Virus record (IMG/VR): IMGVR_UViG_3300047564_003843
Location: 96,705 to 160,704 of that record
Source of the DNA: a virus
Length of the DNA: 64,000 bases
Reading direction: 5' to 3' (one strand)
Part shown: one piece after another, positions 40,776 through 58,802 of the stretch
Layout: each line of letters begins with the position of its first letter
How positions within the stretch are numbered: the first letter of the stretch is position 1
Position numbers and translations under genes: made by a program
The notes under the pieces: model-generated
The model's database searches: none
Seen by the model: the letters and a program-made list of their open reading frames with translations, nothing else
What the model was told of the DNA's origin: nothing

Positions 40776-41498
40776 TTATGTTAGAAGTCTTAATAGCTTC
40801 GCCATCTGACCAGAAATCTCTGATTGATTGTAGAGTTCACTGCCAGACATAAACTTTTTTAGCTCGGCGGTTGCAATATCTGCATCCTCATCGCCAATCT
40901 TTTCCTCAACCCGAGTAATCATGTCTTTCATAAGTTTTTGTAGGGCTGGGGGTACATCAGAGAATCGAATCTTTTCTGCTTGCTCTCCAAAGGCAAATGG
41001 GAGGTTAGCAATAACCTTGCCGAGTTCTGCAGAACTGGCTCGAACGTTCTCTAAAGCTTCAGGATTAAGGGCTTTTGCGTCCAATCGGTCAATAATTCCA
41101 ATTAAATCGTCTGCTGCTTTAGCCGCATTACCGTAGTCACCAGCATTGTCTAAGTTTTCGGCCTCTTCAACCTTGGCAATTACTCGGTCAAGACCAGCAG
41201 TCCCAAGGTCAGACTTTAAACGAGCAAGGACTTGACGGAACTTTCCTGCAGCATCACGAGGTTGAGTTTTAGGGGTGTACTTGCCACGCTCTTCCCCCGC
41301 CTTATCTTGTTTAACTTTTTCTAGCTTTAAGGCTTCAATCTCTTCTTCAGTCAAACCCTCTAATTCTGGGTCTATAGCAAAAAGTGCTTCTGATTTTTCA
41401 GAAATATCACTTTTTATCTCTCCTGCAGCCAACATAGCCTGAGCAGCAGAAATAGCCTCGCGCATTCTAAAAGCTGTGTCTTCAGTGTTTGTAGTCAC
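40776..41498 (-). CDS. Helical head-associated protein with QPRDAAGKF motif
   Basis: GTG start with SD AAGGA; lies between protease and capsid genes. Confidence 0.7.
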   Translation of the reverse strand: MTTNTEDTAFRMREAISAAQAMLAAGEIKSDISEKSEALFAIDPELEGLTEEEIEALKLEKVKQDKAGEERGKYTPKTQPRDAAGKFRQVLARLKSDLGTAGLDRVIAKVEEAENLDNAGDYGNAAKAADDLIGIIDRLDAKALNPEALENVRASSAELGKVIANLPFAFGEQAEKIRFSDVPPALQKLMKDMITRVEEKIGDEDADIATAELKKFMSGSELYNQSEISGQMAKLLRLLT

Positions 41499-41500
41499 TA

Positions 41501-44500
41501 TTAGTCCTTTTTAGATTCAGTTGACTCTTTCGATTCAAGCACTGCAGCAGCGGCTAGGGCACGCTCCCGCATTGAGGCAACTACAGAGTCATCTACTGCA
41601 GCTGCTCCCCACTTCTCTGGGATTAGATTCTCTCGCTTTAGAGCACGAGCACGCTTCATGATGTGCTTGCGAACAAGACCACGCTTACCAGCCTTTGCAC
41701 GACCATAAGCTTGAATTGCGTTCTTCAAATCACCTGGGTTGCGGATTGGGAACGAACCATCTGGCAAAGCCTTACCCTCTTCTGCAAGCTTCTTTCGCTC
41801 ACGGCGAGTAATAACAGCCATTTCTGCTTCAGGGTTGTCGTCAAACATCTGAAGCATGTACTCTGAAGCAGCATCCTCTTCTGCTTTAATGCTTGCCACA
41901 CGGGAAGAAAGCTCTGCCATCTTCTCGGAGAGAGCTGACGCCTGAGACTGCTTGTGAATGTTTTCTAGTGCGTCAATTTTTGAATTTATTTCAGCAATTG
42001 GGTCGTACTTCATTTGAGCAAGAACGTTCGCACCTGCTGCAACCAAAGCCATTACCTGACCTGATGCAACACGAGCACGAGCAATTGGGAATCCTGGAAC
42101 GTTTACTTGGCAAACAGCAACCAACTCAAGGTGTCCCTTGATTGGTCGCCAGTCACCTGATGGAGCTGATGCACGAGCGGCTCTGATTTGCTCGGGGGTT
42201 GTGCCAGGACGTAGTGCGCCTGAAACCCAGATTCCGTAAGCATCTTCACCTGCGTGCACGTCTGCGAATGCTGATGCAGTGTCGTCATAGTGACGTACTG
42301 CTTCTTCAGCAGAAGCTTCTAGACCAGCGTGACCGCCAGCCAAAGTTAGTTGACCAACTGGAACATCCTTACCTTCAGCGGTACGAATTACACCAGTGTG
42401 GAAATATGAATACTTAGAGCGGCTACGTGGAGGACGAGTTCCAAATGCCATTCCGATGTGGTCTACATGCCAAGCAGCAATGTGACCGAATACGCGACCC
42501 TCATCTGTGATGGTGAGTGGAGTCGCTTTATCAAGTTTCTGATTCTCAAACCATTCTGCAGGAGGTTCTACAGGGATAGCACCAGCAACCATGCCGCAAG
42601 CAACAAGTGCTGAAGCATCAAGCGGGTTCACCCCATCTACATAAATACCATCTGGAACTGCCACGGCATCCTCCTCTAACTCGTTGTCATCATCAACGAT
42701 TTGGATATAACACTCTTGAAACGCTGGTTTTGGCACAATCGTGACTGCCATAATCCGAGCATTCTTGATTACTATTCTACCCGCCTCTATCTTCTCTGAG
42801 TCCTCTGAAGCCTCTTCTTCATCAGCTTCAAACATATCCATGTCAGCGGAGACTCCACGGATAAACCCATGACGAACTAGCCTTTCGGCTTCTTTTCCAT
42901 ACTCACCTGTATCGAAAACACCAACGGCATTTCCAATTCCATCTTCGACACGCTCCATGTGGGTAATTTGACCTACAACCACGGAGCCGTCATGTCCTTG
43001 ACCTGTCTTAATCTGCCAAAGTAGCGGCAAAGGTAGGTCACGCATAACTATTACACCTTTATCAAAGATGCGACCATCGCCAGATTCTTTGCCCTCAGGG
43101 ATAACCAAAGGAATCACAAACTTTGCACCATGCTCTGTTGGCTTCGCACCTTCTCGCCCAGCAAACTTGGCTTTTGCGGCTTCAGCACGGGCATTCAAAG
43201 TGAAAGTATCAATAATTTGCTCTTCAGAACGAAGTGCTTCAATACTTGACACTAAAGACTTCTTTTTCATACCTGGATTGCGCTTATCTCCTGGCCACAT
43301 ACCAGTCATCTCTTTATGACGAAGAGCGCAGTAGCCTTTCGAGCGAGGGCCAAGATATTTAGATAGGTAGCGGTCGCAGCGGGTCCAGTCTCCTGGAGAG
43401 TTCCAGCGAATTTTTAATCCACCCTTACCAACTGTCCAGTAGCGTCGTAATTTCTCAGCATTACCGCGGTTCCTGTCAGCACCACCTGCTGCAGTAATTG
43501 CATTAAGGCTTAGTGCCATTCCAACGTTAAAACTTAGAGAAGCAACAATTCCGCCATCAATTTGTGAAACAACGTCTGCTAATTGCTCGTTGCTCAAAAC
43601 AATTGTTGGTGGTGGAGTTGGGCTCTTAAGGTCAGCCATAATCCCTTCGTCGCGCTCCCACTTACGATTACGGCGCTTGAAAGTTGATGGTTGATTTGTG
43701 TCAATTCCAGCAGGAACTACAGCAACTAATTCCATGACTGCAGCAGGGTCATCCTCGGCGACAATTGCAATGTACATAGGAGCAACGTCTGTTTTTTCAG
43801 GGGTAATCTCATAGTTAGGCTTTTTACCCTCAGCTGAAGAAATAATTGACATCTCAAGGTCTGGGTCAAACTTCTTCATGTAATCTTTTGCGCTGACCTT
43901 TTTTACATCCTTAGCAGATTTTTTATCTTCTACCTTTGGTCCAAGATCACCATAAGTACGACTTGGTCTATACCAGCCGTCTCGGTGGTAAGCAGTTTCT
44001 GGGCTTGTAGTGTTTTTGTTTTTCTTATCTAGCCAGTCACGCAAGAGTGGGTTGTTGTAAACATTTTCTGTTGTAGCAGGATTCCAACCTGGCTTTGGAG
44101 TTCCATCTGGATTAAATGACCCTGTGTAGTACTTACCCAAAACGCTGTTGATATCAATGTTTGTGTTTACTGGAGTTGTTCCAGCAGAACTTGGGCTTGG
44201 GTTAGTTGCAGAAACAGGTTGACCTGTGTACTCAGGAGTAAGTCTTTGGTCTGAAACCCAAGTAGTCCAGTCATTCATCATTACTTGCAAACTGTCTGGG
44301 TTTAGTGGAGGAAGACGACCAGGAAGGTTTGCAATTGGGCTATCAATTGGAGCACGAGGCTCACCAAGAATGCCAGATGTGTCTAGCTCGAAGTCAACAA
44401 AACCTTGATTTGAAATTGGCTTGTAATCTTCCGCCAACTGAGTCTGATTTGCAGGAACTGCAACAACTTGTCCACTTGGGAACTCAACATTTGCTTCCTG

Positions 44501-45697
44501 AGTTTGAGCATTAATGGAAAGAATTTTTCCTGTGTACTTAGGATCATTTCCAACAACAACTGTGCTTCCAGCTTTAGCAAATTTTCCTAGCTGGTCGCGA
44601 ACTTGACCCTTTGCCTTCTCGGAGCGCTCTTCAGGAGTGTAGTTGCCATCTTGGTCTGTAGGAGCACCTACAGCAATGAGGCCATCATCCCACTCATCAA
44701 CCTCATAGACGTCGTCTTCTGATAGCTGGTCTAAGAAATTCCAATCAATTTCAGGAATTGCTTTCTCAATTAAGTGTGATTCATCAAAATCAATCATCTG
44801 CACAGAAACTGGACTGAAAGGACTGTTGTCTAGCATTGCAGAAATTTTTACTGCAGATTCACGGTCCACAGGGGTGTGAATTTTTTGCACTTGGTCGTAA
44901 GGGTCGTCAAGTGACTTGTCGTAGGTAATAAAGTCGTGGTCTATATGACCAAGGTCTTCCCAGCTACCGTCATCCCAAACGGTGCAGTAACCTTCCATAT
45001 CTACTTTGTATAGACGGTCAATACCTGATCCATCTAAACGAATACGAATGTAGAAATCGGGTTCGTAATCTGACGGAGTAAATGCGGTGTAGTCAATTCT
45101 TTGTACAGGCATAAACTCATCAATTGATGCAACCACTGAGTTATCTGCACGCTTCTTGTTATCGCGTTCGACAATTGCAGATGCCCAGCGCTTAGCAGCA
45201 TCTCCACCCCAAAGTGCCCATGCGATGCGACCATTACTTGGGTAGTTTTGTTGACCTGGCTTGTAGCCCTTGCCTTTTTTGTCCACTTCGTGGCGTGGAA
45301 AATATTTTGCGATATGACGAATCTTTTGGATACCAATCTGACCACCCTGCGCTAGAGTGCGTGCAGTATTCAGGCCAACAGGTGTGCCACCACGTTTTTC
45401 CTCGCGTCTCCAAGCAAGACCTCTCTTAGCCTCAGCAATAACAGCATCAGGAATTGTGTACATGTTACTGCTATCGCCATTACTTAAAACTTTAATATCT
45501 AAGTCAGTTACAGCTGCGCTCGCTAGCTCTAAAGAAGGAGCTGATGGACTTCCAGCCGAGGTGCTCCACTCTGCAGATGCAAGTAAAACAGCTGTCTTGT
45601 CTACCTGAACAACTGTATTGGTTGACTCATCAACAATAGCTGCCAACTCTTCATTGGAGAAGAGAACATAACTGTCAGTTCTGCCTAGATATTTCAT
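41501..45697 (-). CDS. Multi-domain capsid maturation protease polyprotein (1398 aa)
   Basis: PEGKESGDGRIF...LPLPLLWQ...GHDGSVVVG...GVSADMD (assemblin/HK97-type protease); GRVFGHIAAW; KLRRYW...CALRH; C-terminal ALPDGSFPIRN. Confidence 0.8.
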   Translation of the reverse strand: MKYLGRTDSYVLFSNEELAAIVDESTNTVVQVDKTAVLLASAEWSTSAGSPSAPSLELASAAVTDLDIKVLSNGDSSNMYTIPDAVIAEAKRGLAWRREEKRGGTPVGLNTARTLAQGGQIGIQKIRHIAKYFPRHEVDKKGKGYKPGQQNYPSNGRIAWALWGGDAAKRWASAIVERDNKKRADNSVVASIDEFMPVQRIDYTAFTPSDYEPDFYIRIRLDGSGIDRLYKVDMEGYCTVWDDGSWEDLGHIDHDFITYDKSLDDPYDQVQKIHTPVDRESAVKISAMLDNSPFSPVSVQMIDFDESHLIEKAIPEIDWNFLDQLSEDDVYEVDEWDDGLIAVGAPTDQDGNYTPEERSEKAKGQVRDQLGKFAKAGSTVVVGNDPKYTGKILSINAQTQEANVEFPSGQVVAVPANQTQLAEDYKPISNQGFVDFELDTSGILGEPRAPIDSPIANLPGRLPPLNPDSLQVMMNDWTTWVSDQRLTPEYTGQPVSATNPSPSSAGTTPVNTNIDINSVLGKYYTGSFNPDGTPKPGWNPATTENVYNNPLLRDWLDKKNKNTTSPETAYHRDGWYRPSRTYGDLGPKVEDKKSAKDVKKVSAKDYMKKFDPDLEMSIISSAEGKKPNYEITPEKTDVAPMYIAIVAEDDPAAVMELVAVVPAGIDTNQPSTFKRRNRKWERDEGIMADLKSPTPPPTIVLSNEQLADVVSQIDGGIVASLSFNVGMALSLNAITAAGGADRNRGNAEKLRRYWTVGKGGLKIRWNSPGDWTRCDRYLSKYLGPRSKGYCALRHKEMTGMWPGDKRNPGMKKKSLVSSIEALRSEEQIIDTFTLNARAEAAKAKFAGREGAKPTEHGAKFVIPLVIPEGKESGDGRIFDKGVIVMRDLPLPLLWQIKTGQGHDGSVVVGQITHMERVEDGIGNAVGVFDTGEYGKEAERLVRHGFIRGVSADMDMFEADEEEASEDSEKIEAGRIVIKNARIMAVTIVPKPAFQECYIQIVDDDNELEEDAVAVPDGIYVDGVNPLDASALVACGMVAGAIPVEPPAEWFENQKLDKATPLTITDEGRVFGHIAAWHVDHIGMAFGTRPPRSRSKYSYFHTGVIRTAEGKDVPVGQLTLAGGHAGLEASAEEAVRHYDDTASAFADVHAGEDAYGIWVSGALRPGTTPEQIRAARASAPSGDWRPIKGHLELVAVCQVNVPGFPIARARVASGQVMALVAAGANVLAQMKYDPIAEINSKIDALENIHKQSQASALSEKMAELSSRVASIKAEEDAASEYMLQMFDDNPEAEMAVITRRERKKLAEEGKALPDGSFPIRNPGDLKNAIQAYGRAKAGKRGLVRKHIMKRARALKRENLIPEKWGAAAVDDSVVASMRERALAAAAVLESKESTESKKD

Positions 45698-45963: not shown

Positions 45964-46273
45964 CGGCTTCTGTCTCCTCTTCCTGCTCGTTCCTTGCGAT
46001 TTCATCTAACTCTTCCGCAGAGTAGGGGCGAACTATGTATCTGTTTTCGTATGCCTCAAACTCAATTGTACGCGCCTCATTATTAATGATTAGCTCATTT
46101 TCAGGCACAAAAAACATCTTGTCGTCTACAAGAAGACCGCTTTGGTCTACTTCATCGCCATCGTATGTTTTATAGAGGACTGATTGATAAGGGAGTTTAT
46201 ATGGCTCTGGCTGGGTAAGTCGCTCCAACATGCCTGGAGTGTCGAAAATTATCTTATCTTCTACAAAAGACAT
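45956..46273 (-). CDS. Small acidic hypothetical protein
   Basis: SD GGAGGA; starts 2 nt after the giant ORF stop. Confidence 0.7.
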   Translation of the reverse strand: MSFVEDKIIFDTPGMLERLTQPEPYKLPYQSVLYKTYDGDEVDQSGLLVDDKMFFVPENELIINNEARTIEFEAYENRYIVRPYSAEELDEIARNEQEEETEADE

Positions 46274-46275
46274 GA

Positions 46276-49200
46276 TTAGCTGTCCTCCTTCAGAATGTCA
46301 ACGACATTTACTCCACTAACAATTTCATTATTTCCCTGGGTCAACTTTTCAATAAGCTTTTTTCTCACCGCTGGGCTCATGTTCACCACTGCAAGGTCAG
46401 CCCAAGATAGGTTCTTCTTAAACATAATCTGTGAAGCGTTATTCTTCATGTTATCCATTACGTCGAAGTTTTCCCCCTTAAGTTGCCCATACTGGTCTCC
46501 GCCCGTCGAGTAGTACCCTAATTTGCGGAAAAGCTTGGCAGCATCAAAATTCCATGTTGGACTCCCGCTGTTAGAACCATTTGATTTGCTGGAGTGTGAC
46601 CCGTAGGTGAAAACATAGTTCCCACCGTTAGCACGCAAGTCTTCGCTGGAGGACATACCTCCCATGTTTAGACCGTTGTCCCATCTCTGGCCTGTTGCCA
46701 AAATTCCACCTCGAAGAATCATTTTGTACAAAGCTTCTGCCTGACCATCTGAATCGGATGGAAAATCTTTCCCAGTAGTTTTGTGGTAGAAATATTTAAT
46801 TCCAGTAAAATCAGAAATCTTTTTTCCAACACTTTCTGGAAGTAGGTACTCGACTGTTCCAGTTGTGTCGAGCTTTACTTCGACATCATCTGCAGTTACG
46901 CCCCACTCTTGCTCGATCTGCTGTAGCTTCTGTTCACGTAGAATACCCTTGTAGTTTTTCTTACCCGTGGTGTGTTTTCCAAGTAGCCAAATAAGTTTGT
47001 TCTCTACAACACCTTTCACATCCTCTGGGCTTGCTGGTTTTACAGATTGAACACCGAAAACAGACATAGCATCAGCAATATCTTTTTCAGTAGCGTCTGC
47101 AGGAAGAAGTAGTTCTACGCGGTTGTGTAAACCAACTGTGTAGTTGCTGTATGAATAGTGTTTTGTAAAATCAACTTCACTATCATCGATATCTTTAGTG
47201 GCACGAATGAAGTTAAAAACACCTTTTCCTGCTTTACCTGTAATAGTCGTACCTTTTTCATATTTATCTACGGTACGACGCTTCGAGTCTTCACCGCCAG
47301 TCTTGAAAAACTTTCCTTGCTTAAGAAGACCGCTTTCGGGGTCTGTTTCCCACATTGTCATCTGAATAGCATCTGACTTTGTTGCTTCAGGATTATTAGA
47401 CAAAGCGGCAGCTACACCATTTCCTGCCCACGGGGTGAGTTTAAAAGTAACGCGAATATTTTCTTTATTGCCTTTTACTTTTACCTTTTGAACTTTAACT
47501 TCTAAGTCTTCAATTTCATCGGCGTCAACCAAAGCAGATACGCCATTAGTTGCAACTACTGCATTACCTTCTTTTACTTGAGATACAGCGGAAGCTAGTG
47601 AGGGTACAGCATCAGAAGATGAGCTGCTCCAATCTGCTGGTTTGTTTTCAGCGGGTGCTTGCTCAAATCCACCACCTTCAACCTCGAACTCTGCTTTAAG
47701 AGCCTTCTCCTGTGCTTCGATTTCGGCTTGCTTCTTTTTCTTAAGAAGTTCTTTTTCGTAAGCTTCAGCTTTATCCTTAGCTACTTGAAGAGCTTTTTTT
47801 AGATAAGAAGGGTCAACATCAATGTCAAGTTCTTTTGCCTGCTCGATGGTTAGGAACTTTTCACGGCTCCATACTTTGTCGTTTGGCAAAGTCTTGCTTT
47901 CACCTGCGAGCGGTCCATCAAAATATGAAATCTCAACGGTGTTATCTGATGGATTCAAGTTAGTGATTACACCGTGGCTAGCAAGGTCTTGGTCTCCAGC
48001 AGCTGGACTTGCGTTAGATGCAATCAAACCAGGAAACATATTCTTAGACTCTGGGTCTTTAAGGAACATGCCAGCAGGCTTAAATACATTCTTGTAGTCA
48101 GATTGACTCTGCGCACCGAAATATGTGTAATGCTCGACAGAGTTTTTTTCTTGAGCTTTCTTCAAAACATCTTTGAGAGTTTTTGCTCCGCTAATTGATT
48201 GTCCAGTGAAGTACGGGCTAGAACTTTCTCCTGTAGGTGCAGAAGAAGCTTCTGGTGTTGCTGGGACTTCTGCTGGTGCAGTTGTAGGAGTGGCAGGGGT
48301 TGCTGAATCAGGAGTTGAGTCAGTTTTTGGGGTTGGGTCGCCCCACTTCCACTCGCTATCGATTGGAGTAACGCTTAGAGAGCGAATTTTATTCTTTTCG
48401 CCATCTTCATACACAACGTTTAGGTAGTCGGTGTACACATACTTTCCGACCTTCCAATACAAACGCTTCTTTTTAATAACGGCAGTTTGACCAAATTTAG
48501 AGTGAGAAGGGTTGACAATTTTAACAGTCATACCTTCCTCAAGAACAGTTCCATCAGCAGCAATGTGAGCTTCTTTTTTAGTAGGGACTGATTCCTCGGA
48601 AGTCGGTAGTAGAGATTTGTCCGTCTCGGGTTTGGTCTTGCTCTTTAGATATTTAGGTTTGCTATTAGCATTGTAAATCTGGTCTGCAATAGAGTTCTTA
48701 AGAGCCTCACTTGAGTGGTTCTTCTTTGATAGGAAGTAAACCTTACTTGTGCCGTTTGCAAAAGTAATTCGGTGATATACCTCGAAGCTGTTGCTCTCGT
48801 TTCTGCGAACCACAACGTCGTAGCGGTCCTCTCCATGCATTACAGAATGGACAACAATGTGTCCATTTTCAAGAACACTGCCGTTGTAGTCTTCCTTTAC
48901 TGACTTCCAAATAAGTTCTGGGTCAGTAAGAGATGGATCAGACATAACCTTTTCAGCCTGTTCAACCGTAAGTGGGGTTGAAGCAAGCTCTGGGTCTTCT
49001 GGAGTAAGGTCTGTAATGTCTGCAGCTAGTTTTTCTTCAGCAGTTTCTAACTCTTCTGGTGCATCAACCGAAGAGAGTAAAGAATCAACTAGGTCTGGAT
49101 TCTGTGAACCTTCTTTTAGACCTTCAAGAGTTTCTTTTAGCTCATCGGTGGTGTTGGCTTTACCAAACACACCATCAACAACATCTGACAAGTCATCTAA

Positions 49201-52200
49201 AACTTTTTGCTTTTCTGCAGCAGGAAGTTCAGTTGGTTTTTCAACTGGTGTTCCTGGTGTTTCTAAGATTTCTGCTTCTGGTGCTGGTTTTGTTACAGAA
49301 CTTTCTGGAACGTTTGTTCCATCACCTTCTGCATCTTCCATCTTTCCAATGGTGAATGCCTTGATGACACCTGTGTTGTCTACAGTAATAACGTTGACGT
49401 TTCCGTTTTTGCCTTCTTTGATTTCCTGTGGCTTTACTAAACGGTCTTTTCCGTTATAGCTAAATAAAATCATGTCGCCGTTAGCAATTGCATCTTCAAT
49501 TTGAGCCTGCATGTCATCGGCAGTTGAAAGCTTACGAACTTTCTGCGTAGTTGAGACAGCTTCAGGTGCGTCTGCTGCAACTTCTTCAACACCAAGTTTT
49601 TGCATAAGGTTTGTACGACGTGCCTTTAGAAGGCTCTTAAGCATTTCTGCGGTCTCAGGGTCTTCAGGGAACGCTGCATCAACCAGTTCGTCAATCTTTT
49701 CTGGAGTGACGGCAGCAACCTTCTTACCAGATTCAGCGAGTTCGTCTGGAGTCATACCCGAGAAAATATCGGCAGCTTGTGGATTCGTATCAGAATCAAG
49801 CATGCTGTCAAGTTCAGTTACTTCTTCTCCAAAGTTTTCTTTGTTTTTACCCTGTGCACGGAATAGAAGTGAACCACCTGCATCAACACGGGTGACATTT
49901 CCTTCGCCGTCGGTAAGCATGTTGTCATACTCAAGACCTACTGCATCGTAGTTAGCAAGCCATGCATCAACAGCGAAATCTGCTTGAGCATTCTTTTTCA
50001 CTGTTTCATCATTCTTCTTGCTAGCAAGATCAGCTTTTGAACCGTCAATAACTGGAGAAACTAAAACAGTTTTTCCACTCTTGTCTACACCTAGATAAGC
50101 ACGACCGAACTTAACACCTGCAGCTTCGTATAATGCACCGCCAAGAACTTCATTCGCAGCGTGCTTGTCAGACTTTGGCTTCTTTACGTAGTACTGCTGA
50201 CCAGTTTGTGGGTCAGTGTAGAAAGCACCTTGGTTAGAACCACCTTGTCCACCTGACTTGACCCACTTGCTGGTGTCGAATGTTGTTGAAACATCTTCAG
50301 CAAATACGGTTTCAGTGGTAGTTGGCTTACCAGAGGTAGGAGCATCAAGATTTACAGAGTCAATAATTCCTGGGAATGAGTCAGCAAAGTCTGAGTGAAG
50401 TTTTCCTTCATCTGCCATCTTGGTAATTTGGTCAGCGGTGAACCAACCAACTGCAGTGTTCTCTCCATCCTTGCTGGAAAGGTCTTTGAATTGGTTTGGT
50501 CCTACTTCATAAACATCTGTCTCGTAGCCCCACTCTGCCCCAACCTTGTTAATGTCGGTGTAGATAGGTGTGAGGTTAGTGAGGTCACCACCAACTTCTT
50601 CCATAAACTCTTCTTTGGAAGTTGCTTGTGGAGTCTTCGCCATAAGTTGGTCTTTGTGAGCACCACCTGGGATGCCCCACTTGCCACCACCTTGGGATAG
50701 GCTTGAAGAACGCTTTGCTAAGAAGTACTCGTACTCTCCATCTGCATTCTTGCGACGTACCAAAGCACCAGCGGCACCATACTTACCCCAGAAGCGCTTG
50801 CCATCTGTGGTGAAGAAGTAGCCTTCTCCAGTCTCTTGATCATTTCCGCCGCCAAGTGGTGCAAAGAATGGAGTTTGTGGAGGTGTTAGCTCACCACTCT
50901 TTAGTTTCTGTACATCCTCAGACTTAATGTTTTCGGCATAGTAAACACCGTCGGTGCCTTGAGAAATCTTGTAACCCTCCCAAGTACCAGCGGACTCCTC
51001 CTTCTTTGGGGCCTCATCGGTTTCAAGTTGTGGTTGTTCTAGCTCTGGCTCTGGTTCTACTTCAGTAGTAGCAGAGTTACGTCTCCACAAACCGTACTTC
51101 GCATACTTAACCCAGCTGTTAATTTTTCCGTTCTCGGCGCTGTAAACGTTACCGTTTGCAAGCAGACGTCGATTAACAAAAACTTTTTTATCGTTTTCTG
51201 GGTCTGGCTCAATTGAGAGGACTTCCCAGTATCCGCCGTTTGGTGCAGCAATAAAGTCTCCTGCTTTCCACTCTTCAACAGGAACTGCACCTAGGTAGGT
51301 AACGTTTTCTGGGTCATTTACATAGTTGTTGGAAACAAATCCACCAAGGACAGACTCGATGTCTGGCTCTGTTGTAACGACTTCAGAGATAGTTGCAGAA
51401 GTTAGGTCATCTTTTGTTGGAAGCTCAGCTGGGACCTTCTCGATAAGAGAGTCAACAGTCTCCCCTTCGCCGCCCTTAGCAACAGTCTCAGCCATAATCT
51501 GGTCTGTTTCAACCTTAGACTTCTTAGCCTTACTAGCAAGGTAGTCTGCTACAGCTGCATCGTACTTAGCCTTTGCTGCATCAATGTCGAAATCTTCTAA
51601 AACTAGAGGATTCTTAGTTAACGCAGTTTCATCAAGCATTGCGTTGAGAATGTCTGGAAGAACTGAAACATCAGTTGCAGCGTCGTGCCAGTTGAGGTCT
51701 CCCTTCTCAGGGAAATACTTTGCGTAAACTTCAGCAAGCTTGTTTCCATCTCCAAGGAACTTTAACTTCTTTGCAAGTGGAAGTGTGTCAATAGTTCCAC
51801 CAATATTTACAGTCTCACCGATTTCTTCCATGTGGCGCTGAAGAATTGGGATATCAAAGTCACTGATGTTATGGCCCATGAGAATTACAGGCTCGTCACC
51901 AAGGTATTCCTTAATCTTGGCAAAAGCTTCACTAATAGATTGCTGCTTAGCGAGCCACTCATCAGAGATTGGGTTTCCTTCAGTGTCCTTGAGAATACCT
52001 TCTGAGTCAGCCTTCTTGTAGAAATCGCCTAGAGGTACTTCAGGATTCATCCAAAGAACTAGAGGCTCTTCTACAAGCTCGCCATTCTTAGTCTTTGTAA
52101 CTGCAACTTGAATTGGCTTTTGCTCGTTAAATACTTTTGTCTTGTTTGCAGCAGTTTCAAAATCAAAGCTGACAATAACTTCATTATTAAGAAGTTCCTT

Positions 52201-55200
52201 GAGCTTTGCTGGGTCTCCATTAGCTTCAGCAAGAATCGACTTGAGCTTCTCGCCGCCACCAAAGATTGGGTAAACAGGGCGAGATGGCTTTGGAGGAACT
52301 GCAGCTGTGGTTGTTTCTGGGTCAATTGGAGGTGTGAAAGCTGCACCAGACTCTGCTTTAGCTTTATCAAAAGCAGCCTTCTTAGAGTTGTAATCTGGGT
52401 CTGCATACTTTGGACGCTCTAGAGCTGGCTTGTCGCCAGGTGAAGGCAAGTCCTGAGTTCCACGCATAACTTTGATAAGAGTTCCTGCGTTCCAAGCCTT
52501 CTCCTGAGAGACGTGTCCTGGATAGAATCCCTTTAGTTTTGCCTGACCTGTTTCTGGGTCAATGCCGAGGTTCTCTTCAACAACAAAAAATTCGTAGTTT
52601 GGAGCGTCTTTCTCTTTCTTGAAAGTTATGTCTCCAGCTTTTACTTCAGCTGCAGGAACTTCAACAATGGCAACAGGGTTAGAAACAGGAACAGAAGAAA
52701 CAGTGTCTTCTTTACTGTGCCACTTGTCTAGACCTTCTGGCTCTTGCCACTTAGCTTTAGCCTCTGCCATCTGAGCGTTGTATTGGTCTAGAGCATCGAG
52801 GAACTTGCTGCGAGCTTCTCCATCTTTTGGAACAAAAACACCAAGGACCTTGTCCTTGTAAATCTTGCCTTCAGGGTCAAACTCTTTTGGCTTTGGCTTA
52901 GACAGCTCTGGCAAGTCTCCCTTTGCAGGAGGCTCGACGTTACGGAAAACAGAAATGTTTGTGTCTGCGTTCCACAATTTAGTCTTTTGTGTGACGTGAC
53001 CTGGATAGTAACCCTCAACCCAAACTGAACCCGGTTTTAGTGCCTCAGACTCTTCATCAGAAAATACGTTTTCAATCGTAAAGTTGTCACCAACAGTTAT
53101 ATCTCCTGGTTTGAGATCTCCTGCTTTTGATTCAACGATTGCAGGTCCGCTTGGTTCTCCAATATTGGCAACGGTTTCGGGTCCCGCTTCATCCGTCGCA
53201 ACTTGTTGCGGGGCTTCGGCAGGCGCTTCTTGCTCAGGGGTTGGTGTTCCTTCGGATGTTTCAGGTTCTTCTCCTTCCAGAGCGTCACTGATTTCTACAG
53301 GGGTTAGGTCTTCTTGACCAGCGATACCTTCTTCGTAAATGTCATTAAGAAGAGAATTAGTGTCTTCACCTTGTAGTTGAAGCGCATCGCGAATCGCTTC
53401 TGCTGGAACGTACCCATTGTAATCTTCGCCAGTATCAGTCTCTTGAGAAAGAATTCCATAACCATCGCCGCCTGGTTCCACAGCGCGACGCAACTCCTTC
53501 TTAAGTGCTTCAGTGTCGTAGTTATTTGCAATATCGATTGGGTCGAAATTAAATCCTTCTGGAGCATCCTCTGGAAGTGTGAATAGGTCTTTGTTAAAAG
53601 GCTCTGCGTCTAGGAAGCCGTAACCTTCTGGCAAATCAAAATCATCTTTATTTTTTGGAAGATGCTTGGCGTAATCGCCAGTTTTGGCATACTCGTCTTT
53701 TTCTGCATCAGACAATCCATCAAGCAGTGCAGGCAATTTTGCTGGGTCTGCATCAGCAGATGGCATTGGAGACTCTGGTAAGTCTTTGCCTAATTCATCT
53801 ACAACATCTTGAGGAACTTCAGGTGTAGCTTCTTCTTTCTTACCTGAAAGCTTGTTTTTAATCTTGTCGTAAATTTTTGCAAGAATGCTTTTAGAGTCTT
53901 CGCCCTTTTCATCAAGAGCATCTCTTAGAGCCTCAGCAGGTACAGACTCATCTCCTGCTTCAAATGGAAGCTGAGAAGTTCCGTCTCCATCAACAGCTTT
54001 TTCCAAAGCATCAGTAATTTCTGGAGTATCAAACTTTTGTGCGATTTCAGCAGGGTCATCTGTGTAGTCAGCAGACTCTACATCTGCATCGGCTCCCTGT
54101 GGTGTGTATGGAGCATCGTCCATCTTGTATGCGCCAGCAGGAACTTCAGATGCTTCAGTTCCAGGCTTAATTTTTGCAGAGGTTCCATCTGCATTACGAA
54201 CAACCTCACCAGTCTCAGCGTCAACAACTGTGCCATCTGGAAGAAGCATGTGGTCTTTGGTCGGGTCGAGTGGGAATGTTCCACCACTCTTCTCATAATC
54301 CTTAAGAGCCTTTTGATACTTCTTCTGGTCTTTCTTCAAATTCTTCTTTGAAGATTTAGGAACTAACTTGCCTTCAAGACCTTCAGCAGGTGTTGCCTCT
54401 GGGGCTTGTGGCTCAGAAGCTTCTTGACCTTCATCAAGCATCTTTGATGGGTCTGGTAGTTCGTTCTTCTCAAACTTTGGTTCATCCTGTGCAATGTAGT
54501 CCTGAACATCAGACCAACGCTGTACAGCAGCAAACGGGAACTTCTCGTTCTCTCCACGGCGAGATACAAAGTAGACAGGAAGATTTGGGTCTAGTGAGCC
54601 ATTCTTTCCAAGTCCTTCTGTAACAACGTTCTGACCTTCTCCTTCGCGCTGTTGTGCTGCTTCGAATTGGTCTTTAGCAAATGCGTTAGGGCTAGAAACT
54701 TTAATAACGTCGTATGCATCATCTGTGTACTTGGTTCCAAGGTCAATCTTGGTTCCGTAGTACTTCTGGTCGTCTTCGCTTGGAGACCAGCTTTCATCCT
54801 TGCTAAATCCTGCAGGAGCATCGAGCTTAATTAAATCTTTTTCATCAACAACTGGGTCACCAGTTTTTACCTTTGCAGGAGTCTTGCTATATCCATCTGG
54901 ATTTTGAGCAGACTTAAGAACTGCCTTGACACCTTCTGCAGACTTGGCTGGGACACGAACAAGGTCACCATTTGGCAACTCAATGTCAAAAGTATCGCTG
55001 TTCTCATCGGCAGCAACAGTCTTACCAGTTAGAGATTGAACAACACCATTTGCTTTACGAATCAAAGCACGAAGTGAACCGCCCATGAACGCAAAGCGAC
55101 CCTTACGGTCACGACGCTGTAGCAAAGCACGAGCGCGACGTGCAGCAGATGAGTTTCCATCACCTAGAGCTGCTAGAAGTGCGTAAGAAGGGACTGTGCC

Positions 55201-55689
55201 CTGTGGCAGTGACTGCAAGCGAGCGATTGAATACTCGTACTCAGCGGTAGCTGGGTGTGCAGTTAGAGCAGAAGCTAGAACAGAGCGAATCTCATCGTCT
55301 TGAATCTTTGGGTCGTCAACAATCCAGCGAGCGCGGTGGCGCATAAGGTCAGCAGTGCTCAACTCATGCTTGCGAGTAGAACGTGGGTGGGAGATTGGAA
55401 GTAGGTCTGTGTTATCTACAGTTCCAAAGAAAACTTTGTTGTATTGAGCAAGTTGGATGTAGTTGTTTAACTCTTTGATGGAGCGAATACGACGAAGAGA
55501 GTAAGACTCACCTTCATACTTTGTCAAAGAACGGTTTAGAACAGCAAGAGCAGCTCTACGAGTAACAATGCGAGAACCAGAAAACTTAGAGTTTGCTTCT
55601 TTAACTAGCTCAAGACCAGCATCAATAATTCGCTGGTTCTGCGCTTCATAAGAAATAACTGGTACTTGTATTTTGCTCTTGGCAGCCAT
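46276..55689 (-). CDS. Giant (3137 aa) polyvalent head-module protein: DEDDh exonuclease, Nudix, kinase-like, WYL-like, SH3-like and C-terminal ART-like domains
   Basis: SFDFET/GHNISDFD/WHDAATDV; WGKYGAAG/WGIPGG/EEFMEEVG; GGSNQG/YYVK/NEV/DAWLANYD/RVDAG; AI..G....FSY.G..R.V.P; YFYH/GGILA/YVF/QIMFK. Confidence 0.8.
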   Translation of the reverse strand: MAAKSKIQVPVISYEAQNQRIIDAGLELVKEANSKFSGSRIVTRRAALAVLNRSLTKYEGESYSLRRIRSIKELNNYIQLAQYNKVFFGTVDNTDLLPISHPRSTRKHELSTADLMRHRARWIVDDPKIQDDEIRSVLASALTAHPATAEYEYSIARLQSLPQGTVPSYALLAALGDGNSSAARRARALLQRRDRKGRFAFMGGSLRALIRKANGVVQSLTGKTVAADENSDTFDIELPNGDLVRVPAKSAEGVKAVLKSAQNPDGYSKTPAKVKTGDPVVDEKDLIKLDAPAGFSKDESWSPSEDDQKYYGTKIDLGTKYTDDAYDVIKVSSPNAFAKDQFEAAQQREGEGQNVVTEGLGKNGSLDPNLPVYFVSRRGENEKFPFAAVQRWSDVQDYIAQDEPKFEKNELPDPSKMLDEGQEASEPQAPEATPAEGLEGKLVPKSSKKNLKKDQKKYQKALKDYEKSGGTFPLDPTKDHMLLPDGTVVDAETGEVVRNADGTSAKIKPGTEASEVPAGAYKMDDAPYTPQGADADVESADYTDDPAEIAQKFDTPEITDALEKAVDGDGTSQLPFEAGDESVPAEALRDALDEKGEDSKSILAKIYDKIKNKLSGKKEEATPEVPQDVVDELGKDLPESPMPSADADPAKLPALLDGLSDAEKDEYAKTGDYAKHLPKNKDDFDLPEGYGFLDAEPFNKDLFTLPEDAPEGFNFDPIDIANNYDTEALKKELRRAVEPGGDGYGILSQETDTGEDYNGYVPAEAIRDALQLQGEDTNSLLNDIYEEGIAGQEDLTPVEISDALEGEEPETSEGTPTPEQEAPAEAPQQVATDEAGPETVANIGEPSGPAIVESKAGDLKPGDITVGDNFTIENVFSDEESEALKPGSVWVEGYYPGHVTQKTKLWNADTNISVFRNVEPPAKGDLPELSKPKPKEFDPEGKIYKDKVLGVFVPKDGEARSKFLDALDQYNAQMAEAKAKWQEPEGLDKWHSKEDTVSSVPVSNPVAIVEVPAAEVKAGDITFKKEKDAPNYEFFVVEENLGIDPETGQAKLKGFYPGHVSQEKAWNAGTLIKVMRGTQDLPSPGDKPALERPKYADPDYNSKKAAFDKAKAESGAAFTPPIDPETTTAAVPPKPSRPVYPIFGGGEKLKSILAEANGDPAKLKELLNNEVIVSFDFETAANKTKVFNEQKPIQVAVTKTKNGELVEEPLVLWMNPEVPLGDFYKKADSEGILKDTEGNPISDEWLAKQQSISEAFAKIKEYLGDEPVILMGHNISDFDIPILQRHMEEIGETVNIGGTIDTLPLAKKLKFLGDGNKLAEVYAKYFPEKGDLNWHDAATDVSVLPDILNAMLDETALTKNPLVLEDFDIDAAKAKYDAAVADYLASKAKKSKVETDQIMAETVAKGGEGETVDSLIEKVPAELPTKDDLTSATISEVVTTEPDIESVLGGFVSNNYVNDPENVTYLGAVPVEEWKAGDFIAAPNGGYWEVLSIEPDPENDKKVFVNRRLLANGNVYSAENGKINSWVKYAKYGLWRRNSATTEVEPEPELEQPQLETDEAPKKEESAGTWEGYKISQGTDGVYYAENIKSEDVQKLKSGELTPPQTPFFAPLGGGNDQETGEGYFFTTDGKRFWGKYGAAGALVRRKNADGEYEYFLAKRSSSLSQGGGKWGIPGGAHKDQLMAKTPQATSKEEFMEEVGGDLTNLTPIYTDINKVGAEWGYETDVYEVGPNQFKDLSSKDGENTAVGWFTADQITKMADEGKLHSDFADSFPGIIDSVNLDAPTSGKPTTTETVFAEDVSTTFDTSKWVKSGGQGGSNQGAFYTDPQTGQQYYVKKPKSDKHAANEVLGGALYEAAGVKFGRAYLGVDKSGKTVLVSPVIDGSKADLASKKNDETVKKNAQADFAVDAWLANYDAVGLEYDNMLTDGEGNVTRVDAGGSLLFRAQGKNKENFGEEVTELDSMLDSDTNPQAADIFSGMTPDELAESGKKVAAVTPEKIDELVDAAFPEDPETAEMLKSLLKARRTNLMQKLGVEEVAADAPEAVSTTQKVRKLSTADDMQAQIEDAIANGDMILFSYNGKDRLVKPQEIKEGKNGNVNVITVDNTGVIKAFTIGKMEDAEGDGTNVPESSVTKPAPEAEILETPGTPVEKPTELPAAEKQKVLDDLSDVVDGVFGKANTTDELKETLEGLKEGSQNPDLVDSLLSSVDAPEELETAEEKLAADITDLTPEDPELASTPLTVEQAEKVMSDPSLTDPELIWKSVKEDYNGSVLENGHIVVHSVMHGEDRYDVVVRRNESNSFEVYHRITFANGTSKVYFLSKKNHSSEALKNSIADQIYNANSKPKYLKSKTKPETDKSLLPTSEESVPTKKEAHIAADGTVLEEGMTVKIVNPSHSKFGQTAVIKKKRLYWKVGKYVYTDYLNVVYEDGEKNKIRSLSVTPIDSEWKWGDPTPKTDSTPDSATPATPTTAPAEVPATPEASSAPTGESSSPYFTGQSISGAKTLKDVLKKAQEKNSVEHYTYFGAQSQSDYKNVFKPAGMFLKDPESKNMFPGLIASNASPAAGDQDLASHGVITNLNPSDNTVEISYFDGPLAGESKTLPNDKVWSREKFLTIEQAKELDIDVDPSYLKKALQVAKDKAEAYEKELLKKKKQAEIEAQEKALKAEFEVEGGGFEQAPAENKPADWSSSSSDAVPSLASAVSQVKEGNAVVATNGVSALVDADEIEDLEVKVQKVKVKGNKENIRVTFKLTPWAGNGVAAALSNNPEATKSDAIQMTMWETDPESGLLKQGKFFKTGGEDSKRRTVDKYEKGTTITGKAGKGVFNFIRATKDIDDSEVDFTKHYSYSNYTVGLHNRVELLLPADATEKDIADAMSVFGVQSVKPASPEDVKGVVENKLIWLLGKHTTGKKNYKGILREQKLQQIEQEWGVTADDVEVKLDTTGTVEYLLPESVGKKISDFTGIKYFYHKTTGKDFPSDSDGQAEALYKMILRGGILATGQRWDNGLNMGGMSSSEDLRANGGNYVFTYGSHSSKSNGSNSGSPTWNFDAAKLFRKLGYYSTGGDQYGQLKGENFDVMDNMKNNASQIMFKKNLSWADLAVVNMSPAVRKKLIEKLTQGNNEIVSGVNVVDILKEDS

Positions 55690-57032
55690 TACTTGTTCTT
55701 CCTTTTCGGCAGAAGGTCTGAATCCATGCTGTCGTATGTCATTACTGCAAGAACTGCTGCTCGCTTAAATGGGTTTTCATTGTTGCGAACTGCACGAAGC
55801 CAAGCAGCACGGAAAGCTGGCTCTGCTTCGTAGCCAAGTCCAGAATATTCTGTCATGGCAAAAATTGCGTACTCTGGAGTTTCGTACTCTTCTTCAGACT
55901 TCAACTCCACGGTTAGGTCTGCTTCTGCCTCTGCAGATGCAAGAAGAAGTTCTAGGTCTTCTTCATCACGAACTGGAACCTGCGAAACATCTACAACGCC
56001 TTCTGGAATTACAGCAAAACGGCACTTACCATCATCTTCAATTGGAAGAGAAATAATTCGACATACATCTCCTGCTTGGTAGAAGACGCAGTTGGAGCAC
56101 TTAACGCCGATATCTTTTACTTCGTTCTCAGAAGCAGGTGTGTAGCCAGCCCAAACTCCATCACCGTCTTGGTCAAACTTGCCATATTTCTCTGTGATTG
56201 AAACAAGAGCGTCTGCTAGTGCCTGCTCTTCAGGAATCAACGCAGAAGCTGTAATTGCTTTTGAAGATGCGTTCTTTTTTGAAGACTTAGGGTGTGATGC
56301 TGGTAGAAGGTCATTATCTGCTTTGTACGCAGAGTTCTTTGGCTTACCAGACTTAAGTAGACGAAGGAAAGCGTTAACGCGACCCATAGCCCACTGGTTA
56401 CGAGTCATCCCAGGTCGATGAGATACTGAATAGGCTCCTGCACCACGGCGGTAGACCGCCTTGAGCGTTGAGACGGAAGTCTTGCGACCCTTAGGTGCCT
56501 TCTCGTTGTGCTCCTGTGCCTTCTTTCGAAGAGAAGCTTCAATCGCAGGAGTAAAAGTGATTTTCTTACCGCCTGCAGCTGAGCCCTTTGTATTTTTGTC
56601 AGAGCCTTTGACGCGATCTTTTTTAGGGGCAGGGGTTTGTGCAATCTTCTTTTTAGCAGCAGCTGTCACAGGACCACCTGCAACCCAAGCGCGACATGTA
56701 CGTGCAGATGCACATTTGAAATCAAACGCTTCGCAATATCCTAGTTCACCAGCTGCATCAATTGAATCGAACTCATCTGAGTTGTCGGTCAAACCGCTTT
56801 CAATGCATGAAAGCATCTCTGGTGTTTTAATAAAGACAGCGCAATTGCCACAAGTCTGCTTTTTAGCAGTTTCTGCATCTACGCCCCACTCGCTTCCAAG
56901 TGCAGTCCAATACTCTTCGTTTGGCTCTGCAGGATTGAGTGGTCCATACATTGCAGTGTCAATCGCGTTCTTGCGATTTTTTAGATTCAAAGCAACATCT
57001 TGAGTTGCTGGAGGGCAAGTCTCTTCAGCCAT
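55689..57032 (-). CDS. Modular head-associated protein with two 4-Cys domains and a DLLPxSHP domain
   Basis: CGNC...C...C...C; CSNC...C...C; AVYRRGAGAY...WAMGRVNAF...DLLPASHP; coupled to the portal (TAAATG) and to the giant ORF (TAATG). Confidence 0.7.
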   Translation of the reverse strand: MAEETCPPATQDVALNLKNRKNAIDTAMYGPLNPAEPNEEYWTALGSEWGVDAETAKKQTCGNCAVFIKTPEMLSCIESGLTDNSDEFDSIDAAGELGYCEAFDFKCASARTCRAWVAGGPVTAAAKKKIAQTPAPKKDRVKGSDKNTKGSAAGGKKITFTPAIEASLRKKAQEHNEKAPKGRKTSVSTLKAVYRRGAGAYSVSHRPGMTRNQWAMGRVNAFLRLLKSGKPKNSAYKADNDLLPASHPKSSKKNASSKAITASALIPEEQALADALVSITEKYGKFDQDGDGVWAGYTPASENEVKDIGVKCSNCVFYQAGDVCRIISLPIEDDGKCRFAVIPEGVVDVSQVPVRDEEDLELLLASAEAEADLTVELKSEEEYETPEYAIFAMTEYSGLGYEAEPAFRAAWLRAVRNNENPFKRAAVLAVMTYDSMDSDLLPKRKNK

Positions 57033-58802
57033 TTACTGCTGAGCCTCCTCAGTTGGTGCAGGTGTTGCTGGTTCCTCGGTTGGAGTCTCTGCTGGAGCTT
57101 CGCCAATTGCACCGTCAAGAAGAGTTTGCAACTCTGGTGACATTGGAGCAACAGAACTTTCTTGGCTTACTTGCTGAACTGCTTGCATCACATCTGGTGC
57201 AACAGCTTTAAGCATTGCCTCTGTAAGTTCTGGTGTGATTGCGCCACGCTCTTGTAGAAGTCGTAGAGCAACTTCTGTTGGAGTAGGAGCATCTTGGTCT
57301 GAGAAGCCGTGAGCACGACGCCATGTGTCAGCAGAAACTGCCATGCGGTCGTAACCTGCATCTGCATCTGCAGCACGGTCGTTACGTGTTGAGACTGCTG
57401 ATGGGTCGTACCAAACAACAATTCTATTTACTTCAGACTCGGTGAAACCATTTGCCATTAGATATGGGCGTAGGTAGACAACTGTAAGAGCGTCTGAGAT
57501 GAGAAGCATCAATGGTTCGATGTGTGCCTTGTACAGAGACTCGTCGATTTGCATCGCGTTGGAGTACTTAACATTTGCAAGACCTGTGACGATGTCCTTT
57601 GGAACATCAAGACCTTGAAGAATGCGCTCTAGTACACGGTCTGAACGCTCAGCAAGTGCTGGGTCGAAAGAACGCTCAAACTTAAATTGCTTGATGCGGT
57701 CACCAAGTTCTGCAGGACCGCGAATGATAAGAGGAACAACAGCGCTCGCAGATTCTTCATCACGAATCGGAGTTGTCATCGCATCGATGAGTTGCTCTTC
57801 AAATTCGTCTTCTGCTTCTTCTGCAGTAAAGCCCGCTCCCATTCCGTCTTCAGAATCGTATGGATAGTTAGGGTCTGCTTGTGCAGCAACAGAAAGTCCG
57901 TCTGGAAGATAAAGTGCTCCTGCGTTGAGGCGAGAGCGTGCAGTTGCACGGAATGTTCTGTTGAGGAGAAGTAGTTCTGCGCAAAGATCTAGAAGACCGC
58001 GTAGAGAAGAATCTGCTTCATCAGAGAAACGTGGATGTGAACGCCAGATACGTCCTACAAAGGAACCTTTATTAAGTTTGTTAACTCCCATTGATGCACC
58101 GCCACCTTGACCTGCACCCTGCTCACGGCGACCAATAACATTAAATCCACCACGTGCATCTGTTACAACTTCGTCAACGGAACGGACGTCCCAAGATTCA
58201 GGAATTCCTGAACCTGGACGAGCTGGCATTTGTACTAGATAACATTCACCAGCAACTGAAAGATTAAGAGCTGCATCTTTAAGAAGACCTGCTTGGCCTC
58301 CATATGCAGAGTTAAGACGGTCAAGAGCACGCTCTGCTGCTGATGCAAGACGTTGGTCAATTACTCGAGACTCGTGTACTGAAACTGGAGCCTGTGATGG
58401 GTCATCAATTGCAGCTGCGTATATACGAATACGTGAGACAACAGATGCAACAAGATTAAATGCGTATTTAATTTCACCAATTGCGTCGTAATACTCCCAA
58501 GCTTCGGCCTGCCATGCAGATGAGGATGCGCTACGACGTTGCTTAAACTGTTCGAACTCGCCTTTGTCATTTACTTTGACTTGAACTGCTGCTGCAGTCA
58601 TAGAACGAGGAGTGTTGTAAGAAAGCGGAGCTGGTGAGTTTGGTGAAGTGAAAACTGAAAGAATGCCAGAAGGCTGAGGAGCTACTGTTCTCTCAATAAT
58701 TTGAGTAGAGCGGTTAGTACGAGTACGGCGACGAGGACGTGGTTTCTTGGTTTCAGAAACAACTGGCTCTTGTACTGGCTCTTCTTTTTTGAATACCGCC
58801 AT
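57033..58802 (-). CDS. Portal protein
   Basis: WQAEAWEYYDAIGEIKY, NLSVAGECY, RIWRSHP, SAVVP, GLDVP.DI.TG, VWYD, typical of actinophage portals. Confidence 0.88.
   Translation of the reverse strand: MAVFKKEEPVQEPVVSETKKPRPRRRTRTNRSTQIIERTVAPQPSGILSVFTSPNSPAPLSYNTPRSMTAAAVQVKVNDKGEFEQFKQRRSASSSAWQAEAWEYYDAIGEIKYAFNLVASVVSRIRIYAAAIDDPSQAPVSVHESRVIDQRLASAAERALDRLNSAYGGQAGLLKDAALNLSVAGECYLVQMPARPGSGIPESWDVRSVDEVVTDARGGFNVIGRREQGAGQGGGASMGVNKLNKGSFVGRIWRSHPRFSDEADSSLRGLLDLCAELLLLNRTFRATARSRLNAGALYLPDGLSVAAQADPNYPYDSEDGMGAGFTAEEAEDEFEEQLIDAMTTPIRDEESASAVVPLIIRGPAELGDRIKQFKFERSFDPALAERSDRVLERILQGLDVPKDIVTGLANVKYSNAMQIDESLYKAHIEPLMLLISDALTVVYLRPYLMANGFTESEVNRIVVWYDPSAVSTRNDRAADADAGYDRMAVSADTWRRAHGFSDQDAPTPTEVALRLLQERGAITPELTEAMLKAVAPDVMQAVQQVSQESSVAPMSPELQTLLDGAIGEAPAETPTEEPATPAPTEEAQQ

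Follow-up and report, generated by a model that had tools for sequence, protein, structure and literature searches.

Organization of the giant gene

The stretch of DNA analysed here (the window, 64,000 nucleotides (nt)) is the final 64 kb of the 160,704-bp IMG/VR virus record IMGVR_UViG_3300047564_003843, and it contains one very long open reading frame (ORF) among its head genes. The frame runs over positions 46276-55689 on the minus strand, with ATG as start and TAA as stop, and encodes 3137 amino acids (aa) of 341.6 kDa with an isoelectric point (pI) of 4.7. We call this product the giant protein. It joins an N-terminal domain, common to a large family and named here the N-terminal anchor, to a series of predicted enzyme domains, and it is probably packaged in the phage head and ejected into the host. 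An earlier note on this DNA had reported the single ORF of 3137 aa at the same positions, and the frame was confirmed, being colinear in more than 40 independent contigs. The features of the giant protein, in window coordinates and from its N-terminus, are as follows.

54370..55689, minus strand: N-terminal anchor domain, aa 1-440 (family alignment and profile)
55366..55413, minus strand: motif [DN]xDLLPxSHP[RK]S (DLLP motif), aa 93-108; D95, L96, L97 and P102 invariant in the family
55093..55119, minus strand: short motif QRRDRKGRF (the tag), aa 191-199
53179..54369, minus strand: acidic linker region, aa 441-837, with an internal repeat (aa 542-599 and 713-777)
52408..53178, minus strand: tandem repeat modules, aa 838-933 and 995-1094 (40% identity, E 4e-13, windowed BLAST)
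51655..52194, minus strand: DEDDh (DnaQ/PolC-type) 3'-5' exonuclease, aa 1166-1345 (profiles and conserved residues)
50374..50832, minus strand: Nudix hydrolase domain, aa 1620-1772 (6uuf and PF00293)
49570..50283, minus strand: atypical protein-kinase-like domain, aa 1803-2040 (AlphaFold2 (AF2) model, Foldseek, VIA)
49318..49515, minus strand: WYL-like module, aa 2059-2124 (match of a homologue only)
46834..49317, minus strand: conserved modules with acidic or Pro/Thr linkers, aa 2125-2952
46279..46833, minus strand: ADP-ribosyltransferase (ART) fold closest to DarT and Tpt1, aa 2953-3137 (AF2 model)

A Pfam scan of the whole protein gave a sub-threshold match only, and the domains were seen after the giant protein was cut into pieces. 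The domain coordinates of the earlier note were accurate to within a few codons. The acidic Pro/Glu linkers that it had placed between the domains were found at four sites (aa 402-439, 790-839, 1535-1575 and 2125-2164).

Predicted enzyme domains

The exonuclease domain matched PF00929 (RNase_T) with 42.4 bits against a cut-off of 24 and phrog_192 with E 4e-17, and its best NCBIfam match was the proofreading (exonuclease) region of PolC (E 7e-15). Five catalytic residues, D1176, E1178, D1279, H1335 and D1340 (patterns DxE, NxxxFD and Hx4D), were invariant in 34 sequences, so the DEDDh exonuclease read by eye in the earlier note is borne out.

The Nudix-like hydrolase of the same note also held. 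The domain matched mycobacterial RenU (6uuf) over 153 residues with E 1.3e-9 and PF00293 with 24.1 bits (cut-off 21.1), E1694, E1697 and E1698 were invariant in 31 sequences, and the core E-U-x-E-E was retained. RenU hydrolyses FAD, ADP-ribose and NADH.

The AF2 model of the kinase-like domain, built on 26 homologues, had a predicted local distance difference test (pLDDT) score of 88.5 and matched kinases only. Foldseek gave CtkA (E 7e-7), then LepB, PI4KIIIbeta and HipT, with 279 kinase matches at E <= 1e-3. VIA-align gave CtkA with Z 16.8 (217 residues, root-mean-square deviation 3.4), CotH with 14.0, LepB with 11.8, HipT with 11.7 and actin-fragmin kinase with 10.7. It means that the HipA/PI3K-type kinase proposed before is right at the level of the fold, and the motifs listed then are the columns invariant in 26 sequences, that is the Gly loop, K1836, E1847, D1908/N1913, D1922-N1923 and D1936. 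Their roles (ATP-binding Lys and Glu, catalytic D-x4-N, metal-binding Asp) were assigned by motif order, without superposition. The domain gave no match above cut-off to HipA_C (PF07804) or PI3_PI4_kinase (PF00454), and the giant protein itself gave none; sub-threshold matches were to HipA_2 (0.031, in 3 of 26 members) and HipA_C (0.17, in 1 of 26).

In BFVD, fusions of the same kinase-like domain with an HK97-type portal, with a head-morphogenesis (MuF) domain and with ARTs also occur, and gp67 of the cultured Gordonia phage GodonK, a protein of 1479 aa adjoining the portal, contains it too. Related phage proteins with this domain bear the annotation "ADP-ribosyltransferase", which they owe to a separate PF03496 ART elsewhere in the polypeptide. 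We rejected the idea that the kinase-like domain is itself the ART, since PF03496 lies elsewhere in P0054, P0057 and Dolphis gp117.

Sequence profiles of the C-terminal domain (aa 2953-3137) gave chance-level matches only, and its fold was obtained from the AF2 model alone (pLDDT 82.5). With this model the best Foldseek match was DarT1 (8baq, E 0.018), followed by OspC3, PltA, pierisin, scabin and pertussis toxin S1. A VIA search, which is independent of Foldseek, placed four DarT entries first (Z 8.4, 7.7, 7.6 and 7.3 over 142-155 residues) and Tpt1 next (Z 6.0-6.5), and the ESM Atlas gave a DarT (PF14487) cluster with a template modelling (TM) score of 0.62. Residues H2969, R3002, S3013, D3017, Y3025 and D3065 were conserved in 62-80 homologues. 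A genome-wide search with PF14487 found nothing, but its positive controls were silent too. The genome has neither a DarG-like macrodomain nor a NADAR partner according to Macro and NADAR profile searches with working controls.

For the WYL-like domain of the earlier note the result was divided. The homologous segment of P0050 (aa 890-952) reached 21.8 bits with PF13280, exactly at the cut-off, while the giant protein itself gave no match, and this putative module is regarded as a lead only. The SH3/KOW-like label of the earlier note is a putative one; the tandem repeat modules had no Pfam match, and the modules at aa 2125-2952, as seen in family alignments, had no match in PDB, Pfam, NCBIfam or the Atlas.

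The N-terminal anchor and its family

No Pfam, PDB-profile, NCBIfam or Atlas-feature match was found for the N-terminal anchor. An exhaustive profile search with it recovered at least 442 representative clusters, 209 of them at E <= 1e-30, and the match was always N-terminal. The proteins are mostly of 2000-5400 aa and reach 7004 aa. The longest, the metagenomic P0153, carries the anchor, KTSC, RNase_T, a UvrD helicase, three PF03496 ARTs and two Nudix domains.

A length-matched search gave 57 relatives of 1700-5000 aa, and BLAST mapping showed that the N-terminal 800 aa or so are common to all members and that the middle is variable. The cargo of same-anchor members includes UvrD helicase (PF00580), ArdC (PF08401), MPTase-PolyVal (PF18818), SprT (PF10263), KTSC, ART (PF03496), Nudix and RNase_T. 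The kinase-like and C-terminal ART-like modules occur also in proteins without the anchor, including the MuF-bearing P0057 and P0058. The earlier note had proposed looking in related phages for a conserved N-terminus with swappable enzyme domains, and this is what we observed: the anchor is fixed in the at least 442 clusters and the cargo varies.

Gene order and translational coupling

By PHROG and Pfam scans the order of the locus is portal, 447-aa DUF5824 protein, giant protein, two small acidic ORFs, protease polyprotein, 240-aa ORF, capsid and tail genes.

57033..58802, minus strand: portal protein (phrog_776, E 3e-107)
55689..57032, minus strand: 447-aa portal-adjacent protein, DUF5824, Cys-rich, carrying DLLPASHPKS
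45700-46273, minus strand: two small acidic ORFs of 105 aa and about 87-101 aa, mutually overlapping, after the ART-like end of the giant protein
41501..45697, minus strand: prohead protease polyprotein, 1398 aa, with the tag QVRDQLGKF at 44579-44605 (Peptidase_S78 and several head-protease PHROGs)
40776..41498, minus strand: 240-aa scaffold-like protein, with the tag QPRDAAGKF at 41238-41264
38490..40610, minus strand: major capsid protein, 706 aa (phrog_777, E 2e-83)

The giant gene starts within the sequence TAATG, in which its ATG and the stop codon of the upstream 447-aa gene overlap; the Shine-Dalgarno sequence AAGGAAG lies about 9 nt upstream, and the downstream ORF begins 2 nt past the stop of the giant gene, preceded by GAAGGAGGA. 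The coupling described in the earlier note is therefore present, while the protease is not the immediate neighbour, as two small ORFs intervene. In relatives the region of these small ORFs holds either one ORF of 200 aa or two of about 100 aa. They had no family match; as a DarG-type antidote they were rejected for their small size and the lack of such a match.

Colinear homologues of 3000-3400 aa lie on the more than 40 independent contigs (NCBI, JGI, ENA, Logan), and six related loci have the same gene order, that is portal, in some the DUF5824 protein, giant protein, small ORFs, protease (in some loci fused to a scaffold part) and capsid. The source gene call (P0002, 2936 aa) begins 201 aa downstream and omits window positions 55087-55689, and thus leaves out the conserved DLLP motif and the tag. 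The longer start is supported by homologues, in which the first 200 aa are conserved.

Among the neighbours, the DUF5824 protein has 11 Cys and paired CxxC-like motifs, and in relatives it is either fused with a Ferritin domain or has one next to it. The capsid protein starts with a conserved helical part of about 80 aa, then has an acidic low-complexity stretch of about 200 aa, and its HK97-like part begins near aa 290.

Source record and its two variants

Self-comparison of the record showed that bases 1-24059 are colinear with 136445-160704 (window 39741-64000) at only 66-84% nucleotide identity. Because the ends are colinear and diverged, the contig must circle a genome of about 136.4 kb once and then enter a diverged variant. 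The join of the two variants is outside the giant ORF. The second variant has its own intact copy of 3133 aa with 53% protein identity to the giant protein; by segment the identity is 76% in the N-terminal anchor, 83% in the Nudix domain, 61% in the kinase and 32-47% in most others.

Among named phages the closest is DSL-LC01, an Actinomycetia phage assembled from a metagenome. It has a hypothetical protein of 3289 aa in the same slot; the paper on that phage left it as hypothetical and did not discuss it. Megablast of the giant gene against GenBank phages gave no match. Two WhiB-family genes are in the genome.

13171-13374, minus strand: WhiB-family gene
14158-14367, minus strand: WhiB-family gene

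Genes of this family are a hallmark of actinobacteria and their phages, so an actinobacterial host fits.

Short motifs shared with head proteins

The tag lies in a basic stretch (aa 170-265, pI 10.5) of the otherwise acidic giant protein. In six-frame translation its pattern, Q-x-R-D-x-x-G-[KR]-F, was observed 3 times per genome copy against 0.007 expected, and the three sites are in the giant protein (aa 191), the protease polyprotein (aa ~365) and the 240-aa scaffold-like ORF (aa ~79), with no others. The same three-protein pattern is present in DSL-LC01 (L001), L006, L009 and L010. Locus L011 has it in the protease and scaffold copies and not in the giant protein, and L007 has two copies, in the giant protein and in an 815-aa downstream protein. 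Most giant proteins, very distant ones included, retain the tag near aa 190; in P0054 and P0055 it is at aa 17.

The 240-aa part is fused to the C-terminal end of the protease polyprotein in L010 and L011, which is why a scaffold role fits this ORF, similar to the nested C and Nu3 genes of lambda.

The DLLP motif, with its core DLLPxSHP[RK]S at aa 95-104 of the giant protein, is common only to the giant protein and the DUF5824 protein (2 copies observed, 0.003 expected). The DUF5824 protein ends in a second copy of the motif, DSDLLPKRK. As a homologue of the N-terminal anchor this 447-aa protein was rejected, as only a motif of 21 residues is in common.

A portal-adjacent protein of 467 aa in DSL-LC01 (L001 9273-10673) starts with the tag and the module following it and then has a further C-terminal domain. 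It is unrelated to the DUF5824 protein of the window and may be a small separate cargo.

From these distributions we infer that the tag is a candidate capsid-addressing signal. When the capsid protein was folded together with the stretch aa 170-265 around the tag, the predicted complex scored 0.00, with controls not run, and is neutral on binding.

Cysteine depletion

The giant protein has no Cys in 3137 aa. The 171 family members longer than 1900 aa have 118 Cys among 535,046 residues (0.022%), with Cys absent from 103 of the 171, whereas the other long ORFs of the same genome had 0.63%. The capsid protein, the scaffold-like protein and a 1246-aa protein taken to be the tape measure also have no Cys. 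Such depletion would fit storage of a protein in an extracellular particle and its threading through a narrow channel.

Interpretation and alternative explanations

Polyvalent proteins, as the account of Iyer et al. 2017 presents them (PMC5512222), carry 2-15 unrelated effector domains per polypeptide, occur in phages and conjugative elements, and are predicted to be packaged in the head and injected. The giant protein has in one ORF an exonuclease, a Nudix domain, a kinase fold, a possible WYL-like module and an ART fold. Its gene lies between the portal and the protease and capsid genes, likewise in the six related loci. The domain vocabulary is shared as well: PF18818, PF08401, PF00580, PF10263 and PF03496 are in same-anchor homologues, and P0057 and P0058 have MuF with the same kinase and Nudix modules. 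A conserved N-terminus with exchangeable enzyme domains also fits the class as PMC5512222 and PMC9503650 define it. We thus place the giant protein among the polyvalent proteins of Iyer et al. 2017, as a variant with a non-MuF front end.

We consider it probable, as the earlier note had also proposed, that the giant protein is a multi-effector protein which is packaged in the head and ejected. This is argued from the position in the head operon, the modules shared with MuF-, portal- and ART-fused proteins, the motifs shared with the scaffold-like protein and the protease, and the Cys depletion. In such a course the N-terminal anchor would fix the giant protein for procapsid packaging, the basic tag, common to the protease polyprotein and the scaffold-like protein, would bring it into the assembling shell, and the DLLP motif, common to the portal-adjacent protein, would make a second head contact. 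The giant protein would then be ejected into the host with the DNA, and its domains would act early in infection. The exonuclease may act on 3' ends of nucleic acid, the Nudix domain on ADP-ribose/NAD(H)-type dinucleotides or caps, and the kinase on host proteins or small molecules, and the ART domain may ADP-ribosylate nucleic acid or protein. Nucleic acid is named as a possible target because DarT and Tpt1 are the nearest structural matches.

Several observations weigh against this. All members with the N-terminal anchor are metagenomic, and packaging is a prediction for them. In profile searches the N-terminal anchor resembled no protein known to bind portal or capsid. The Nudix box deviates from the canonical GX5EX7REUXEEXGU, as it lacks a conserved Arg and its distance from the PGG glycine is greater by 3-4 residues. 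No fold could be assigned to about 1700 of the 3137 residues, which include the N-terminal anchor, the tandem repeat modules, aa 1346-1600 and aa 2125-2952, and the Cys depletion is circumstantial. The PF14487 (DarT) profile had no match in 27 members at E <= 1, and the structural match of the ART-like domain is middling (Z 8.4, Foldseek E 0.018). We accept the fold despite a Z of about 8 because three search routes agree, and the ART-like C-terminus of the earlier note is upheld to this extent. In the giant protein this domain has Gln (Q3087) at the position of the catalytic Glu, which is Glu in 75 of 80 homologues (~94%) and in the second variant of the record. We located this position, which directly precedes the catalytic strand, with the help of the alignment and of the strand pattern of the model. 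It means that the ART allele of the giant protein may be inactive or altered.

An unlikely alternative is that the giant protein is packaged but mainly structural, as a scaffolding or ejection-conduit protein similar to inner body or T7-like core proteins, with its enzymes secondary or vestigial. It would agree with the large size and internal repeats of the protein, its long acidic linkers, a tag that also occurs in the scaffold-like protein and protease, the ART allele without catalytic Glu, and the lack of an enzymatic assignment for more than half of the protein. However, the catalytic residues of exonuclease, Nudix and kinase are invariant across 26-34 diverged homologues, which argues for selection on catalysis, and the cargo is freely swapped while the anchor stays, unlike in a structural core protein.

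It is still less probable that the giant protein is a late cytoplasmic multi-enzyme which is never packaged and acts in the producer cell on nucleotide pools, on NAD/ADP-ribose signals of abortive infection or on DNA ends, with its place in the head operon for timing only. DnaQ-type exonuclease and Nudix are common housekeeping enzymes, and packaging is predicted from sequence and gene context. Against it stand the tightly coupled position between portal and protease, conserved in all related loci, a slot equivalent to that of MuF-fused proteins, the same modules fused to portal and MuF proteins elsewhere, a tag in common with two proteins that must enter the procapsid, and a family which is nearly free of Cys.

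That the long frame is an artefact of assembly or annotation (fused genes or a chimeric contig) can hardly be believed even though the record wraps around two diverged variants and the source gene call begins late, because homologues are colinear and open on more than 40 independent contigs with constant synteny in six loci, while the 3133-aa frame of the second variant is intact, the first 200 aa are conserved in homologues, and the join of the variants is outside the ORF.

With the packaged multi-effector protein as the preferred explanation, one more general idea may be offered tentatively. The tag could be a general capsid-targeting address of this phage lineage, with which the scaffold-like protein, the protease and the cargo dock inside the HK97-fold shell, and the N-terminal anchor could be a MuF-independent platform that exchanges 2-7 kb of enzyme cargo.

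New here are the non-MuF anchor family and its size, the two shared motifs, the Cys loss across the family, the CtkA-type kinase family without a Pfam model, and the terminal DarT-like ART. Polyvalent proteins are regarded as the first weapons of a phage to reach the host, and to our knowledge almost none has been studied at the bench. The family described here comprises at least 442 sequence clusters with proteins of up to 7004 aa and belongs to abundant freshwater actinobacterial phages. The fixed anchor with swappable cargo makes it a natural catalogue of candidate anti-defence enzymes (DnaQ-type exonuclease, Nudix, CtkA-type kinase, DarT-like ART). If confirmed as a capsid address, the tag would explain how a cargo of 340 kDa is loaded free of MuF, and foreign proteins could be directed into phage heads with its help.

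Comparison with known systems

The earlier note did not recognise the domain combination as described. We found no description of this actinophage protein in the literature, but its kind is already known: because polyvalent proteins have been described (PMC5512222), the combination is a variant and no new category. As in the class set out there, the giant protein has many unrelated effector domains and is encoded next to portal and head genes in a terminase-portal phage, and the family repertoire includes ART, Nudix, kinase, helicase, ArdC, MPTase and 2H. Two differences from that account can be named. The giant protein lacks MuF, portal or another of the anchors described there, and has its own N-terminal domain of 440 aa with two motifs of the head operon. 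Its kinase is of the CtkA/CotH/HipA type with a helical C-terminal half in the model, whereas the truncated Ser/Thr/Tyr-kinase clade of the class lost the C-terminal subdomain (PMC5512222).

The slot next to the portal had been pointed out in the earlier note as that of MuF-type and polyvalent proteins. The slot is indeed equivalent, as in locus L008 the MuF-2H-Nudix-kinase-ART protein P0057 lies directly after the portal; the giant protein, however, has no MuF domain and a different N-terminal anchor. MuF (PF04233) had no match in the giant protein cut into pieces (E <= 1) and none in the six-frame genome, with working controls, and the MuF-type locus has neither the tag nor the DLLP motif. 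MuF (SPP1 gp7/Mu gpF) fusions such as P0057 nevertheless have homologous Nudix and kinase-like modules, with 33% identity between P0057 and the giant protein over aa 1619-2046.

T4 Alt, P1 DarB and the N4 virion RNA polymerase are large head-packaged effectors with experimental support, according to the reviews in PMC5512222 and PMC9503650. A large enzyme or ART is there stored in the capsid, delivered with the DNA and acts before phage gene expression, as predicted for the giant protein. No sequence relationship with the giant protein was detected, and their domain set is another one.

In the kinase-like domain, CtkA of H. pylori, CotH, the N-terminal kinase of LepB, HipA and HipT share the fold over ~200-220 residues (Z 16.8 to 10.8), and their Gly-rich loop, Lys, Glu, D-x4-N and D-x-G-G motifs are conserved in the giant protein. 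The identity is only 10-18%, and the giant protein has an extra conserved insert, Y-D-x-x-G-x-x-x-D-N, after D-x4-N.

For the ART-like domain the best structural matches are DarT (8baq, 7omv) and Tpt1/KptA, from which it differs by an extra subdomain of ~160 aa that precedes it. R52 and E152 of DarT1 are essential (PMC11543638). They are paralleled by the conserved Arg and Glu of most ART-like homologues, in which the His on strand 1 and a Tyr are also conserved.

Encapsulin cargo-loading peptides, the T4 capsid-targeting sequence and the C-terminal targeting of the HK97 protease direct proteins into shells. Their sequences are unrelated to the tag, a putative shell-binding peptide, which is internal in the giant protein (aa ~190) and not terminal. 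The likeness is that of a short conserved peptide in proteins bound for the interior of an HK97-fold shell.

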